A DNA stretch of 59,773 nt from a bacterium. Its GTDB lineage: Bacteria > Omnitrophota > Gorgyraeia > Aquiviventales > Aquiviventaceae. The stretch is taken from contig DASWKB010000030.1 of the NCBI GenBank assembly GCA_036396895.1, positions 1 through 59,773 of the forward strand, written 5' to 3'. This document shows, in pieces, positions 48,793-54,600 of the stretch; the stretch's first letter is position 1; every line of letters starts with the position of its first letter. The notes under the pieces are model-generated. The model worked only from the letters and a program-made list of their open reading frames with translations. It made no database searches and was not told where the DNA came from. The position numbers were made by a program, and so were the translations under genes.

Positions 48793-49278
48793 ATGCCGCG
48801 CGTGTTCATCGGCCTTGGCTCGAATCTCGGAGACCGCGAGGCGCATCTGGCCGGCGCGATCCGGGCGCTCGCCGACGAACCCGGCGTCCGGCTGATCCGG
48901 AGCGCCACGGTGCGCGAAACGCTCCCCGTGGGCGGCCCCCCGCAGGACCCCTACCTGAACACCGTCGTGGAAGTGTCCACCTCGCTCGAACCCCGGCAGC
49001 TGCTCGCGGCCCTCAAGCGCCTGGAGCGGCGCTTCGGCCGGCGGCCGTCCTCCGTCCGGTGGGGGCCGCGCACGCTCGATGTGGATCTGCTCCTCTTCGG
49101 GGATCTCGTGATCGAGGAGCCGGGACTGAGCCTCCCGCATCCCCGCCTGCACGAACGGCCCTTCGTCCTCGAACCGCTCGCCGAGCTGGCTCCCGATGTC
49201 GTGCATCCGCGGCTCGGCCGCACCGCCGCCACGCTGGCGGCGGCCTGCGCGGGCAAGGCCGAGACGGAGCGGCCATGA
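48793..49278 (+). CDS. folK: 2-amino-4-hydroxy-6-hydroxymethyldihydropteridine diphosphokinase
   Basis: IGLGSNLGDR, YLNTV, RWGPRTLDVDLL, PHPRLHERPFVLEPL. Confidence 0.97.
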   Translation: MPRVFIGLGSNLGDREAHLAGAIRALADEPGVRLIRSATVRETLPVGGPPQDPYLNTVVEVSTSLEPRQLLAALKRLERRFGRRPSSVRWGPRTLDVDLLLFGDLVIEEPGLSLPHPRLHERPFVLEPLAELAPDVVHPRLGRTAATLAAACAGKAETERP

Positions 49279-50123
49279 TCGTGATCCGCTCGCACGAGCG
49301 GATGGCGCGCCTCGCCGCCCGATGGGAGCGGGAGGGGCGGCGAATCGGCTTCGTGCCGACGATGGGCGCGCTGCACGCCGGCCACGGCGCGCTGATCCGG
49401 GCGGCGAGGCGCGAGAGCGATCGCGTGATCGTGAGCGTGTTCGTGAACCCGCTGCAGTTCGGTCCCCGGGAGGATTTCGCGCGGTACCCGCGGACGCTCC
49501 GGCGGGACTGCGCGGCCGCGCGCGCCGCCGGCGCGGACGTCGTGTTCGCCCCTCGCCCGTCCGCGATGTTTCCCGGCGGATTCGACACCGCCGTCGACGT
49601 CGGAGCCGTCGCGGCGGGCTGGGAAGGGCGCGCGCGGCCGGGCCACTTCCGCGGCGTGGCGACCGTCGTGCTGAAGCTGCTGCTCGCGACGCGCGCGGCC
49701 GTGCTGGTGCTGGGACAGAAGGACTACCAGCAGACGCGGGTGCTGGCGCGGCTGGTGTCGGACCTGGGGATCGGGGCGCGGCTTCTCGTGTGCCCGACGG
49801 TGCGAGAGCCGGACGGGCTCGCCTTGAGCTCGCGCAACCGGTCCCTGACCCGGGCGCAGCGCGCGCGGGCGGGAGCGCTGAACGCGACGCTTCGCGACGC
49901 GAGCCGGATGATCCGGAGGGGCGCGCGGAGCGCGCCGGCGGTGAACGCGTTCATGCGGCGGCGGCTCGACGCGGTGCCGGGCCTGCGCGTGGAATACGCG
50001 GCGGCGGCGGACGCGGCGACGCTCGAGCCGGTCCGTCGCCTCGGCGGCCGCATCGCGCTCCTGGCGGCGGTGCGGCTCGGTCGCGCACGGCTGATTGACA
50101 ATGTTCTCGTCGACGTGCCATAA
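49275..50123 (+). CDS. panC: Pantoate-beta-alanine ligase
   Basis: FVPTMGALHAGH, FVNPLQF, RPGHFRGV, GQKDYQQ, REPDGLALSSRN, RLIDN. Confidence 0.97.
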   Translation: MIVIRSHERMARLAARWEREGRRIGFVPTMGALHAGHGALIRAARRESDRVIVSVFVNPLQFGPREDFARYPRTLRRDCAAARAAGADVVFAPRPSAMFPGGFDTAVDVGAVAAGWEGRARPGHFRGVATVVLKLLLATRAAVLVLGQKDYQQTRVLARLVSDLGIGARLLVCPTVREPDGLALSSRNRSLTRAQRARAGALNATLRDASRMIRRGARSAPAVNAFMRRRLDAVPGLRVEYAAAADAATLEPVRRLGGRIALLAAVRLGRARLIDNVLVDVP

Positions 50124-50574: not shown

Positions 50575-51380
50575 TGATCCGCGTCGGTCTGGTGGGCTGC
50601 GGTACCATCGGAACCGGCATGGCGCTGGCGATTGAACGCCGATACGGGAGCATGGCCCGCCTGGTGGCCCTCCATGATATCGATCCCGCTCGAACCGATC
50701 TCCTCCGCCGAAGACTTCGCACCTCCCCCCCGAGCGTCTCCCTGCCGGTCCTCATCCGCCGCAGTCAACTGGTCCTTGAGGCGGCCTCGGTCCGGGCTGC
50801 CGGCGAGGTCGCGACGCGGGCCCTGCGCGCGCATCGGGACGTCCTCATCATGAGCGTGGGCGGCTTGGTCTTGAGCCGGGCCTGGCGCCGCGCCGCGGCT
50901 CGGGGGCGGGCCCGGGTGTACGTGCCGAGCGGAGCGCTGGCGGGGTTGGACGGGATTCGAGCGCTGGCGGAAGGCGGTCTGCGGTCGGTGCGTCTCACGA
51001 CGACCAAGCCGCCGTCGGCGCTGGCCGGCGCGCCGTACGTGCGGGCCCGGAAGCTCAGGCTGTCGGGTCTGCGGAAGCCCCGCGTGGTGTTCGAAGGCAC
51101 GGCGCGGGACGTGGTCGCCGGATTTCCGAAGAACGCGAACATCGCCGCGGCGCTGGCGCTCGCGTGCGGGCGCGCGCGCGCTCGCGTGCGCGTGCGCATC
51201 GTGGCCGATCCTTCGGCGCGGGTGAACCGCCATGAGCTGGAAGCAGTCGGAACCGCCGGCGCCGTGCGCGTGACGATCGAGAGCCGTCCGAGCCGCAATC
51301 CGAACACGAGCGTGTTGGCCGTCCAGTCGGCCGTGGCGGCCCTGGAGCGGATCTTTTCTCCCGTGGCCGTCGGGACCTAG
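50574..51380 (+). CDS. nadX: L-aspartate dehydrogenase
   Basis: GLVGCGTIG, PSGALAGLD, KPP, FEGTARD...FPKNANIAA, NRHE, NPNTS. Confidence 0.85.
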   Translation: MIRVGLVGCGTIGTGMALAIERRYGSMARLVALHDIDPARTDLLRRRLRTSPPSVSLPVLIRRSQLVLEAASVRAAGEVATRALRAHRDVLIMSVGGLVLSRAWRRAAARGRARVYVPSGALAGLDGIRALAEGGLRSVRLTTTKPPSALAGAPYVRARKLRLSGLRKPRVVFEGTARDVVAGFPKNANIAAALALACGRARARVRVRIVADPSARVNRHELEAVGTAGAVRVTIESRPSRNPNTSVLAVQSAVAALERIFSPVAVGT

Positions 51381-51488
51381 CGTGTCCCCGGCACGCGGCC
51401 CGGCATCAAATTTCTGTGGGTCGTCGCGTCAACCCGGAAGCGCGACGGAGGCATAACCGCGTAGCGGATGGAGAGGGGGTGAGTTCCC

Positions 51489-51632
51489 GTGGCAGAAAAG
51501 GTCGCAAAGGTGGGAATCAAGAAGCAGGCCGGTTACCTGTACTTTGTGGACCGGCATGGTGACATCTCGCGAGCCAAGATGGTGCGAGGTGGCCAGAGCC
51601 GACGTCGATCGAGCCGGCGCCGCAGGCGCTGA
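51489..51632 (+). CDS. 47-aa highly basic protein, putative nucleic-acid-binding (Cc1-like motif plus Arg-rich tail); absent from ORF track
   Basis: GTG start 6 nt after SD-like GAGGGGGTGA. MAEKVAKVGIKKQAGYLYFVDRHGDISRAKMVRGGQSRRRSSRRRRR*. Fills an otherwise empty gap. Confidence 0.8.
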   Translation: MAEKVAKVGIKKQAGYLYFVDRHGDISRAKMVRGGQSRRRSSRRRRR

Positions 51633-51642
51633 TCCGGTCGGA

Positions 51643-51694
51643 TCACGACGGGAATCCCTACACGCAGTCCTGCGTGTAGGGATTCCCGTCGTGA
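51643..51694. other. Perfect 24-bp inverted repeat (3' hairpin of the small-protein mRNA)
   Basis: tcacgacgggaatccctacacgca-gtcc-tgcgtgtagggattcccgtcgtga. Confidence 0.8.
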
Positions 51695-51717
51695 GTTATC
51701 ATCGAGTGGTGCGATCC

Positions 51718-54600
51718 ATGTCCCCAGACGACGCCATCCTCGTGCGCGGCGCGCGCGAGCACAATCTCAAGTCGGTGTCGCTCCGGCTGCCCCGCAACCG
51801 CCTGATCGTGATCACCGGGTTGTCGGGCTCCGGCAAGTCCTCGCTGGCCTTCGACACCTTGTACGCGGAGGGGCAGCGGCGTTATGTCGAGAGCCTCTCC
51901 GCCTACGCGCGGCAGTTTCTCGAGCGCCTCGGGAAACCCGACGTGGAGTCGATTGAAGGCCTCTCGCCCGCCATCGCGATCGAGCAGCGCACGGCGGGCG
52001 CCAACCCGCGCTCGACCGTCGCGACGCAGACCGAGGTCTACGATTATCTCCGGGTGCTGTTCGCGCGGCTCGGCCGGGCGCACTGTCCGCGCTGCCGCGT
52101 GCCGATCAGCCGCCAGTCCGCGCAGGAGATCGTCTCTCAGATCCGGTCGCTGCCGGCTGGCGCGGAGCTGACGATCCTGGCGCCCGCGATCCGGGGGCGC
52201 AAGGGTCAGCACCTCGAGCTCTTCCAGGAGGCGCGGCGGCAGGGGTTCGTGGCGGTCCGGGTCGACGGCGCCGTCAGGGATTTGGACGAGCGGATCGTGC
52301 TCGACAAGAAGCGCGCGCACTCGGTCGACATCATCGTGGACCGCCTCGCGCTGGACGGCGGCGAGTCCTCCCGCCTGACGGAGTCGGTCGAGGCGGCGCT
52401 GAAGTCCGGCAAAGGCATCGTGCTGGTCAGCGTGCGGCGCGGCCGCTCCGGAGGGACGCGGATCGCGGCCCAGGAGCTGGTCTTCAGCGAGCTCTATGCG
52501 TGCGCCCGGTGCGGGTTCAGCGTGGAGGAAATCTCGCCCCGCACGTTTTCATTCAACTCTCCCTACGGGGCGTGCCCGTCCTGCGACGGACTGGGGACGC
52601 GCCTCGAAGTCGATCCCGACCTGGTCGTGCCGGACCGGACGACATCGCTCCGGGAGGGCGCGATCGAGCCCTGGAAGCGCGGCGGGGTGCACATGGTGAT
52701 GTATTACTCGCGCCTGTTGCGGGAAGTGGCGCGCCACTTCCGGCTTGACCTGGACACGCCCTTCGGCCGGCTTGATCGGCGCATGCAGCGGATGCTGCTC
52801 TATGGGTCTCCGGAGGAGGTCTGGGACGGGCCGTTCGAAGGCGCCATTCCGAATTTGGAGCGGCGGTTCCGGGACACGCAGTCGGACTTCGTCAAGGAAG
52901 AGATCGCGAAAGTCATGAGCGTCCAGCCGTGCCGGAGCTGCCGCGGCGCCCGGCTTCGTCCCGAGCGCCTCGCCGTCACCATCGGAGGGCGCTCGATCGC
53001 GGACGTGTGCCGCGACTCGGTGGTCGCGGCCGAGGCGTGGCTGGCCGCGTTGAGCTGGTCCGCCGGTGAGCGCGCGGTGGCGGATCCGCTGCTCAAGGAG
53101 ATCCGCTCGCGATTGCAGTTCCTCGTCGATGTGGGCCTGGGATACCTGACGCTGGACCGGGCCTCCGCGAGCCTCTCGGGAGGGGAGGCGCAGCGGATCC
53201 GGCTGGCGACCCAGGTGGGTTCGGGTCTGGTGGGGGTGATGTACGTGCTGGATGAGCCCTCGATCGGGTTGCATCAGCGGGACAACCAGAAGCTGCTGAA
53301 CACCCTGGCGCGGCTCCGGGACCTCGGCAATACGCTCGTCGTGGTCGAACACGACGAGGAGACGATCCGGCGCGCGGACCATATCGTGGATCTCGGGCCC
53401 GGCGCGGGCAAGCACGGAGGGGAGGTCGTGGCCGAGGGGGCGCTGGAGGACATCCTGCGCGAGCCGCGAAGCCTGACGGGGCAATACCTGAGCGGCGGCC
53501 GGCGCATCCCCGTTCCGCCTGCGCGGAGAGCCGGGCACGGGACAGGCATCACGATCCGGGGCGCGGAGGAGCACAACCTGAAGTCCATCGACGTCCGGAT
53601 TCCGCTGGGCTGCTTCGTGTGCGTCACCGGGGTGTCGGGGTCGGGGAAGTCCACGTTGATCGATGAGATCCTCTATCGGGCGCTGGCGCGGCGGCTTTCG
53701 GGCGGGCGGCTGCGCCCCGGCCGGCACCGGAGTCTGAGCGGGGTCGAGCACCTGGACAAGGTGGTCGTCATCGACCAGTCGCCGATCGGGCGGACGCCCC
53801 GCTCCAACCCCGCGACGTATACCGGCGTCTTCGGTCCCGTCCGGGACCTGTTCAGGCAGACCTCGGGCGCCAAACTCCGGGGATTCAAGCCTGGCCGGTT
53901 CAGCTTCAACGTCAAGGGCGGGCGCTGCGAAGCCTGTCAAGGCGACGGCGTGAAGCGGATCGAGATGCATTTCCTCTCGGACGTCTACGTGCGCTGCGAG
54001 GTCTGCAAGGGGAGCCGGTTCAACGAGCTCACGCTGCAAGTGACGTATAAGGGGCGCTCGATCGCGGATGTCCTGGCGATGACGGTGGAGGAGGCGCTGG
54101 AGCTCTTCGGGGCGGTGCCGGCCATCGCCCAGCGTCTGCGGACGATGCAGGCGGTGGGACTGGAGTACCTGGAGCTGGGGCAATCGGCCACGACGCTCTC
54201 GGGCGGCGAGGCGCAGCGGATCAAGCTCTCGCGGGAGCTCTCGCGCCGCGCGACGGGCCGCACCTTGTACCTGCTCGATGAGCCGACCACGGGGCTGCAC
54301 TTCGCCGACATCGAGCGGCTCCTCGGCGTGCTCCACCGGCTTGTGGAGCACGGCAACACGGTGCTCGTCATCGAGCACAATCTTGAAGTCGTGAAGACGG
54401 CGGACCATCTCATCGATCTGGGTCCCGATGGGGGCGACGCGGGCGGACGGCTGGTGGCGGCAGGCACTCCCGAGGAGGTCGCGCGGCAGCCGGCGTCATG
54501 GACGGGCCGGTACCTGCGCCCGCTCCTCGAGGGCCCGAGGGGATCGCTCACGCTGCCGTCGCTTGAAGCGCCGGTTGAGGCGGAGGCGGGCGGCGCATGA
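51718..54600 (+). CDS. uvrA: Excinuclease ABC subunit A
   Basis: GAREHNLK, TGLSGSGKS, zinc fingers (CPRC; CARC..CPSC), LSGGEAQR twice, TGVSGSGKS, LDEPTTGLH. Confidence 0.99.
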   Translation: MSPDDAILVRGAREHNLKSVSLRLPRNRLIVITGLSGSGKSSLAFDTLYAEGQRRYVESLSAYARQFLERLGKPDVESIEGLSPAIAIEQRTAGANPRSTVATQTEVYDYLRVLFARLGRAHCPRCRVPISRQSAQEIVSQIRSLPAGAELTILAPAIRGRKGQHLELFQEARRQGFVAVRVDGAVRDLDERIVLDKKRAHSVDIIVDRLALDGGESSRLTESVEAALKSGKGIVLVSVRRGRSGGTRIAAQELVFSELYACARCGFSVEEISPRTFSFNSPYGACPSCDGLGTRLEVDPDLVVPDRTTSLREGAIEPWKRGGVHMVMYYSRLLREVARHFRLDLDTPFGRLDRRMQRMLLYGSPEEVWDGPFEGAIPNLERRFRDTQSDFVKEEIAKVMSVQPCRSCRGARLRPERLAVTIGGRSIADVCRDSVVAAEAWLAALSWSAGERAVADPLLKEIRSRLQFLVDVGLGYLTLDRASASLSGGEAQRIRLATQVGSGLVGVMYVLDEPSIGLHQRDNQKLLNTLARLRDLGNTLVVVEHDEETIRRADHIVDLGPGAGKHGGEVVAEGALEDILREPRSLTGQYLSGGRRIPVPPARRAGHGTGITIRGAEEHNLKSIDVRIPLGCFVCVTGVSGSGKSTLIDEILYRALARRLSGGRLRPGRHRSLSGVEHLDKVVVIDQSPIGRTPRSNPATYTGVFGPVRDLFRQTSGAKLRGFKPGRFSFNVKGGRCEACQGDGVKRIEMHFLSDVYVRCEVCKGSRFNELTLQVTYKGRSIADVLAMTVEEALELFGAVPAIAQRLRTMQAVGLEYLELGQSATTLSGGEAQRIKLSRELSRRATGRTLYLLDEPTTGLHFADIERLLGVLHRLVEHGNTVLVIEHNLEVVKTADHLIDLGPDGGDAGGRLVAAGTPEEVARQPASWTGRYLRPLLEGPRGSLTLPSLEAPVEAEAGGA

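Follow-up and report, generated by a model that had tools for sequence, protein, structure and literature searches.

A small basic protein gene upstream of uvrA in an Omnitrophota genome

The window analysed here is the complete 59,773 nucleotide contig DASWKB010000030.1 of the genome assembly GCA_036396895.1, which belongs to the bacterial phylum Omnitrophota (class Gorgyraeia, family Aquiviventaceae). The assembly comprises 71 contigs that total 1.62 Mb, with 78% completeness and a G+C content of approximately 70%. We focused on a small gene on the forward strand of the window at positions 51489-51632, which is found in the gene order panC, panD, aspartate dehydrogenase, small gene and uvrA (with the uvrA ATG at position 51718). 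The gene and the features around it are listed in Table 1. Direct reading and a listing of all reading frames give the same translation, MAEKVAKVGIKKQAGYLYFVDRHGDISRAKMVRGGQSRRRSSRRRRR.

An initial annotation of the window, made from the letters alone, had proposed this 47 amino acid frame as an unannotated gene, and the sequence that it quoted is identical to our translation from the GTG start codon. Its tally of 16 basic and 3 acidic residues agrees with our count of five lysines and 11 arginines versus two aspartates and one glutamate. The protein has a predicted pI of 11.9 and a net charge of approximately +12.6. The exact protein is not present among approximately 15 billion predicted proteins, which indicates that no gene-calling pipeline had called 51489-51632 and fits the description of the gene as unannotated.

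Table 1. Coordinates of the small gene, the two parts of its product and the flanking signals in the window.
Feature	Position	Strand	Details
Coding sequence, one-unit member of the GYLYF-unit family	51489..51632	+	GTG start, 47 codons, TGA at 51630-51632
Residues 1-35, folded unit MAEKVAKVGIKKQAGYLYFVDRHGDISRAKMVRGG	51489..51593	+	From AlphaFold2 model and alignment
Residues 36-47, polycationic tail QSRRRSSRRRRR	51594..51629	+	8 Arg, 3 Ser, 1 Gln
Ribosome-binding site GGAGAGGGGGTGA	51470..51482	+	6 nt ahead of the GTG start
Upstream stem-loop	51422..51447	+	CGTCGCG / CGCGACG stem, 12-nt loop TCAACCCGGAAG; 42-67 nt ahead of the start codon
Perfect inverted repeat	51643..51694	+	Arms 51643-51667 and 51670-51694; 25 nt, 100% complementary; between stop codon and uvrA

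To compare the gene with its relatives, 80 genome loci were sampled (L004-L083), with statistics on upstream words and tails computed over 79 of them. The ribosome-binding site, initially described as a good Shine-Dalgarno sequence, is conserved: the three closest relatives (L005, L006 and L011) have the identical ribosome-binding word and the same GTG start codon, and GGAGG/GGGGGTGA-type words are the top enriched upstream words across the 79 loci. Archaeal relatives have BRE/TATA-like words upstream of the gene. A scan of positions 51300-51800 of the window for sigma-70-type promoters found none.

The 3' hairpin, initially given as 24 bp, is present and measures as a perfect 25 bp inverted repeat. 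It has a folding energy of -51.8 kcal/mol (z = -7.7 versus shuffled sequences) and is not followed by a T-run. This element probably marks the end of a monocistronic mRNA or stabilises it. A strong hairpin is also located directly 3' of the stop codon in L005, L006, L011, L039 and L061, as well as in 12 of 12 further loci from the same phylum, most of which have a T-run. We rejected an origin of the hairpin from the dispersed intergenic repeats that this genome contains, as no other copy was found in the window or in the rest of the genome.

Comparison of coding sequences showed that 51489-51632 is a real, monocistronic gene under strong purifying selection. Ten one-unit genes differ at 739 codons synonymously and at 229 codons non-synonymously, and between the window gene and L005, L006 and L011 dN is 0.06 and dS is 0.86-1.04. 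Of 496 pairwise comparisons between two-unit genes, 369 show saturation of dS; the rest have a median omega of 0.07. The strong conserved ribosome-binding site, the stand-alone gene and the hairpin directly after the stop codon in all inspected relatives together suggest that the gene is highly expressed.

A large, unnamed protein family with the window protein as its shortest form

A phmmer search with a word index identified 885 relatives of the window protein, the best of which is 88% identical (E = 5.6e-30). Hundreds of these homologues keep the GYLYF and D..GD residues on which the initial annotation had made its proposal depend. An exhaustive HMM search returned 1135 representative clusters at 50% identity with E <= 1e-3, including 416 with E <= 1e-10, and when each prokaryotic species was represented by one genome, relatives turned up in at least 551 species genomes. 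In a genome search the family profile matches the window gene with an E value of 7.8e-21. The family to which these relatives belong is large, has no name and consists of very basic, all-beta proteins, of which the window protein is the shortest form. Sequence searches of Pfam, NCBIfam, PHROGs and PDB gave nothing significant apart from a weak match to phrog_9154, and the window protein has no Pfam match at E <= 10. For one relative a precomputed assignment to PF27482 is on record. The match to phrog_9154, a phage family of unknown function, is marginal (6.8e-06 over two stretches for P0001 and 0.08 for the window protein) and would add only that the unit may also occur in phage proteins. We found no name for the family in the literature searched by motif and topic, a search that most subscription journals fall outside of.

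Members of the family consist of one or two units of 33 residues followed by a tail rich in lysine and arginine, and most have two units. The unit can be written as K-V-A-K-x-G-[VI]-K-K-x-x-G-Y-L-Y-F-[VI]-D-x-x-G-D-[VI]-S-R-A-K-M-x-R-G-G. Residues 4-34 of the window protein match this consensus at all fixed positions. An alignment of 20 family sequences has 18 invariant columns, which in window protein numbering include G9, K11, K12, G15, Y16, L17, Y18, F19, D21, G24, D25, A29, K30, M31 and R33. Relatives with 65-88% unit identity share the N-terminus MAEKVAKVG and the ...KM[AV]RGG junction that leads into the basic tail.

The best matches to the window protein are 73-83 residues long and have two tandem units and a Lys/Arg tail. 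Of the 80 loci, 56 have two-unit genes and approximately 20 have genuine one-unit genes; the others are mis-parsed two-unit genes and one possible three-unit gene. The apparent three-unit gene (L010:3001-3492) has a third unit that runs into a masked stretch of Ns, and could reflect a genuine triplication or the misassembly of near-identical repeats. There is no second unit in the flanks of the window gene and no second copy of the gene in the genome. As one-unit forms are a recurrent minority, the window protein represents a variant architecture of the family and not an outsider. When units were compared using 116 two-unit proteins, one-unit proteins scored between the first and the second unit, and the unit of the window protein leans towards the second.

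Tails of the relatives range from 1 to 65 residues in length, with a median of 67% lysine plus arginine across the 79 loci. The tail of the window protein begins directly after ...KM.RGG, as elsewhere in the family. Other members have lysine-rich tails and mostly two units, whereas the window protein has a single unit and a tail of arginine and serine. Tails in which the basic residues are all arginine were found only in the window and its closest relatives (L005, L006 and L011), and in this clade the arginines are interrupted by serines. The arginine content cannot be put down to a G+C effect, as locus G+C is not correlated with the R/(K+R) ratio of the tail (Spearman coefficient 0.12, p = 0.31) and lysine tails occur at loci with 64-67% G+C. 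At the other extreme, members from DPANN archaea (L021, L060, L047, L013, L042 and L030) have tails of 30-65 residues made of AKKK/TKKK/VKKK repeats, which resemble linker histones.

Predicted structure

An AlphaFold2 model of the window protein has three antiparallel strands (residues 9-13, 16-20 and 26-30) with a mean pLDDT of 70.7. Confidence is highest over residues 11-30 (pLDDT 84-88) and falls to 54-61 in the tail, residues 36-47 of which are predicted to be of low confidence or disordered. A two-unit relative, modelled from an alignment of 70 sequences, has six strands with a pLDDT of 86.4 and a pTM of 0.71. The lower confidence of the lone one-unit chain is as expected if such a chain needs a partner. 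Foldseek searches of the one-unit and two-unit models against PDB gave a best E value of approximately 1, matching no solved fold, and the two-unit model had no match with E < 0.3 in the BFVD database of predicted viral structures.

Phylogenetic distribution and HU copy number

Named carriers of the family include Woesearchaeota and Nanoarchaeota (DPANN), Omnitrophota, Elusimicrobiota/Endomicrobia, a Nitrospirae bin, a Babeliaceae bin and bins of PVC/Verrucomicrobiota. Named two-unit proteins from archaea and bacteria are identical at a median of 78% of core positions, and at 92% in the closest pair. With synonymous sites saturated, such identity across domains is remarkable. Within the phylum of the window, 73 of 201 genomes carry the family (71 of 150 when only high-quality genomes are counted), almost all of them in the class of the window. 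With one exception each carrier has a single copy, as does the window genome. Nearly all members from the phylum have two units; the one-unit form is found in four of its taxonomic families, among them that of the window. One genome from the class of the window encodes a protein identical to MDP8230893.1, which is named 'hypothetical protein' and originates from Candidatus Gorgyraea atricola (Candidatus Omnitrophota). Members bear this name in Woesearchaeota, Omnitrophota, Elusimicrobiota and Endomicrobia records as well.

We also compared the distribution of the family with that of the nucleoid protein HU. The window genome has a single HU gene. In its class, the 72 genomes that carry the family include 70 with one HU gene, one with none and one with two, and of the 24 genomes that lack the family, 15 have two or more HU genes. 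Four of the five taxonomic families of this class that lack the small protein have two HU genes. The association between the family and a second HU gene has a Fisher p value of 1e-10 by genome and approximately 1e-4 by taxonomic family, in both cases uncorrected for phylogeny.

Comparison with known chromatin proteins

The proteins Sul7d (Sso7d/Sac7d) and Cren7 are SH3-like five-stranded barrels that use aromatic or hydrophobic residues on a beta-sheet face to bind DNA. Like the GYLYF-unit proteins they are small (approximately 7 kDa), basic and all-beta, but they do not have a repeat architecture and the search of PDB, where their structures are included, with the two-unit model found no match better than an E value of approximately 1. 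A Cren7 profile (PF11520) that was positive in a Sulfolobus control detected nothing in the window genome, and PF02294 did not match the window protein at E <= 10. Sul7d and Cren7 act as chromatin proteins in Crenarchaeota (PMC7373190). The RRRSSRRRRR stretch of the window protein is protamine-like in composition, and the long AKKK/TKKK tails of the DPANN relatives recall the C-terminal domain of linker histone H1. These likenesses to H1, chlamydial Hc1 and protamines are of composition only and imply no homology, and the tail of the window protein is 12 residues attached to a conserved folded unit. HU/IHF proteins (PF00216) are likewise small, basic, dimeric and abundant, and in the class of the window a second HU paralogue and the GYLYF-unit family rarely co-occur; however, their fold and sequence are unrelated and HU is encoded alongside the small gene in the window genome.

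The initial annotation had interpreted the protein as a single copy of a motif (K..GY.Y...DG) that the crenarchaeal chromatin protein Cc1 was said to carry twice. Cc1 is described in reviews as an abundant, basic and beta-rich monomer of 6 kDa whose affinities for single- and double-stranded DNA are similar (Luo et al. 2007, as summarised in PMC4200833), and as a protein of 56 amino acids with a pI of 10 (UniProt G4RKF6, Thermoproteus tenax) that has no Pfam model (PMC7613761). A Pyrobaculum sequence served as bait only, and the comparison itself used database proteins named CC1 by their sources. We retrieved 89 CC1-family proteins, which are 45-89 residues long (54-62 in most cases); many are named 'DNA-binding protein CC1' by NCBI/UniRef and come from Pyrobaculum, Thermoproteus and Thermoproteaceae. 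Their alignment consensus, KLKFYDIKAKQAFETDxYEVVEKxTARGPMxFAVAxSPYTGIKVYRLLGKKK, has no internal repeat, and the K..GY.Y...DG motif is not present in the alignment. Conversely, the CC1 blocks KLKFYD...FETD.YE...ARG...FAVA.SPYTGIKVYRLLGKKK are not found in the window protein or its relatives.

Direct searches gave the same result. An hhalign comparison of the family profile with the CC1 profile returned a probability of 0.2% over four columns, and BLASTP produced no alignment between the window protein and a CC1 protein at E <= 100. The CC1 profile found nothing in the genome of the window at E <= 10. In the other direction, the family profile had no match in a 1.8 Mb genome that encodes CC1, and one chance-level match (E = 0.008, inside a 312 amino acid frame) in 101 genomes of the class that carries CC1. 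The reading of the motif as that of Cc1 is wrong, and the pattern that was said to be present twice is that of the two-unit members of the unnamed GYLYF family. That the window protein is a bacterial homologue of Cc1 is refuted at the level of sequence, and we regard it as extremely improbable despite a general likeness (small size, high pI and a predicted beta-rich structure). Cc1 is a small (54-60 amino acids), basic, reportedly beta-rich and abundant binder of single- and double-stranded DNA, which is the kind of job that we propose for the window protein below. It differs in lacking an internal repeat, the GYLYF...GD motif and a long tail, and in belonging to Thermoproteales-type genomes. 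Of the broader idea that this is an archaeal-type nucleoid protein of very small cells, the part that stands is that the family is shared between DPANN archaea and very small-celled Omnitrophota and that a nucleoid role is plausible; the link to Cc1 does not. A small basic protein that coats nucleic acid is a known kind of protein, and it is the family, the fold and the one-unit arginine-tailed form that are undescribed.

Gene neighbourhood, leader and domain fusions

The order HPPK-panC, panD, aspartate dehydrogenase, small gene and uvrA recurs in Omnitrophota loci. In the initial annotation the position before uvrA was thought to be possibly incidental; within this clade it is not incidental, being kept in approximately 12-13 Omnitrophota loci. 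Relatives encode HPPK (folK) and pantoate-beta-alanine ligase (panC) as one fused protein of 424 residues (L036:737-2011). At positions 48793-50123 of the window the two are encoded in different but overlapping reading frames, an HPPK-like one at 48793-49278 and that of panC at 49059-50123, which suggests either separate genes or an assembly frameshift.

In 14 Woesearchaeota loci the small gene adjoins a gene for a HerA-type helicase (Pfam DUF87), which is downstream on the same strand in eight cases and upstream on the other strand in six (L016, L020, L023, L024, L027, L035, L043, L047, L051, L052, L068, L071, L073 and L083). A conserved protein of 195 residues with no Pfam match is encoded directly upstream on the same strand in 20 DPANN-type loci (L007, L008, L010, L013, L019, L021, L025 and others; representative L055:2325-2912). 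Judging by its sequence, it looks like a winged-helix regulator.

A spacer of 108 nt separates the aspartate dehydrogenase gene from the small gene and contains the upstream stem-loop (Table 1). Hairpins are found at the equivalent place in L005 (about 190-215) and L011 (about 2945-2970), with other stem letters and similar loops (CAACCCGGTGT), and the loop consensus of leader stem-loops across relatives is CAACCCGG[AT]... Six of 14 predicted leader pairs are changed on both sides in a comparison of four sequences, one of which is misaligned. The stem-loop may act within the 5'-UTR or may instead terminate the aspartate dehydrogenase transcript, and its assignment to the small gene is uncertain.

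The two-unit module is also found as part of larger proteins. Its partners include an HNH endonuclease (P0143), an Mrr-type restriction endonuclease (P0182) and zinc ribbons that come with GAF and RING domains (P0143, P0182, P0135, P0145 and P0123 are fusion representatives). Two proteins of 886 and 1139 residues contain five to nine degenerate copies of the unit.

A proposed role in nucleic acid binding

We infer that the window protein binds nucleic acid from its net charge, the H1-like tails of its relatives, the HNH, Mrr and zinc ribbon fusions, the uvrA and herA neighbours, the signals of high expression that are typical for abundant small proteins and the HU pattern. We consider such binding quite likely, and if it occurs, DNA is the appreciably likelier of the two ligands. 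On balance we favour, with somewhat less confidence, the proposal that the minimal one-unit member acts as a homodimeric, abundant and largely sequence-independent coat, bridge or condenser of nucleic acid, with DNA as the likeliest ligand and RNA as the main alternative. According to this proposal two one-unit chains would pair to give the six-stranded fold that the two-unit proteins are modelled to form in a single chain. The beta surface would present two exposed tyrosines per unit, flanked by lysines and arginines, to nucleic acid, and the arginine tail would neutralise phosphates. For a DNA role, the outcome would be a nucleoid-associated protein that works beside the single HU of the genome.

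Several observations weigh against this proposal. HU is encoded in the window genome, and 195 of the 201 genomes from the phylum have it; the small protein therefore does not replace HU, and we rejected a role as HU replacement. The link with HU copy number is uncorrected for kinship and may reflect one or two events. Similarly, adjacency to uvrA or herA may be an inherited gene order without functional meaning. The module is also fused to OmpA (membrane-anchored), DoxX, HIT and membrane segments, so its presence is not diagnostic of DNA binding, and some of the apparent fusions may be gene-calling errors. Finally, the G-Y-L-Y-F-V strand that follows basic residues is one that we take to resemble the RNP1- or cold-shock-type aromatic strands of proteins that bind RNA or single strands, and it would be as suited to RNA or single-stranded DNA as to duplex DNA.

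This last resemblance belongs to the alternative that we rate as unlikely yet most worth keeping in view, namely that the protein binds RNA as an RNA chaperone, a ribosome-associated factor or a regulator of its own leader, with the aromatic beta surface contacting single-stranded RNA and the tail serving as an arginine-rich motif. The serine-interrupted, arginine-only tails of the window's clade would suit such a role, as would the conserved leader hairpins with compensatory changes in the window, L005 and L011, and the TAAGACG-N11-CGTCTTA leader hairpins of a Woesearchaeota subclade (e.g., L033, L044, L078 and L080). One module fusion to a HIT/DcpS-like nucleotide hydrolase and an MMR_HSR1-type (ribosome-binding) GTPase neighbour in 12 archaeal loci point in the same direction. 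However, the whole leader does not fold better than shuffled sequences, and searches of the leader and trailer against Rfam found no known RNA family at threshold. There are no ribosomal protein genes among the recurrent neighbours, and because ribosomes differ between the domains, ribosome binding is hard to square with a core identity of 78-92% between archaea and bacteria. The HNH and Mrr fusions and the H1-like tails point to DNA.

The same upstream region could instead hold a palindromic operator at the gene's own promoter, read by a two-fold symmetric protein that acts as a sequence-specific self-regulator, which we judge to be quite improbable. In archaeal-type loci the words GACGA/TCGTC/CGACG/CGTCG occur upstream at 2.33 versus 0.39 per 150 nt, an approximately six-fold enrichment (Wilcoxon p = 2e-9) that control words do not show. 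Inverted pairs of these words are found upstream in 16 of 79 loci versus 76 of 2409 background windows, and the window itself has TCGTCGCG-N11-CGCGACG starting 68 nt ahead of the start codon. In bacterial-type loci, however, the enrichment is weak (1.32 versus 0.82, p = 0.08), the nearest relatives L005 and L011 keep the hairpin but not the words, and the archaeal signal partly overlaps BRE-like ACGAAA words directly ahead of the TATA box. With its lysine tails of as many as 65 residues and its single gene in each genome, the family fits a general binder better than a dedicated regulator. A role unconnected with nucleic acid, in which the unit is a general beta-hairpin building block and the free-standing form a protein-protein or envelope-associated adaptor, is very unlikely in our estimation. 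The unit is indeed found alongside OmpA, DoxX, GAF/RING domains and membrane segments in long proteins, as well as in the multi-copy 886 and 1139 residue proteins, and profile scans show weak similarity to beta-propeller/BamB-type and WW-type hairpins. The free-standing proteins, on the other hand, lack signal peptides and membrane segments, end without exception in a polycationic tail and are far more conserved than the units of the long proteins.

Implications for small-celled bacteria and archaea

The chromosome owes its physical state to small, abundant and basic proteins, among which HU-type proteins dominate in bacteria, and histones, Alba and a few lineage-specific proteins in archaea. 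About half of the phylum's high-quality genomes have the GYLYF-unit family, and most universal proteins are far less conserved across the two prokaryotic domains than it is. A more ambitious proposal, which we offer tentatively and consider possible rather than probable, is that these proteins constitute an undescribed class of chromatin or nucleoid proteins with a new all-beta fold, whose core identity of 78-92% across domains would reflect constraint comparable to that of the core histones. Under this proposal a 47 residue homodimer with a protamine-like tail would condense the chromosome of ultra-small Omnitrophota, and the two-unit proteins would have arisen from duplication of a self-pairing unit.

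The one-unit form is the simplest experimental object in the family, being a 5.5 kDa peptide that is accessible by synthesis, in which self-pairing and the contribution of the tail are directly addressable. If DNA binding holds true, the family would represent a missing major component of the nucleoid in uncultured, small-celled Omnitrophota, Elusimicrobiota and DPANN.

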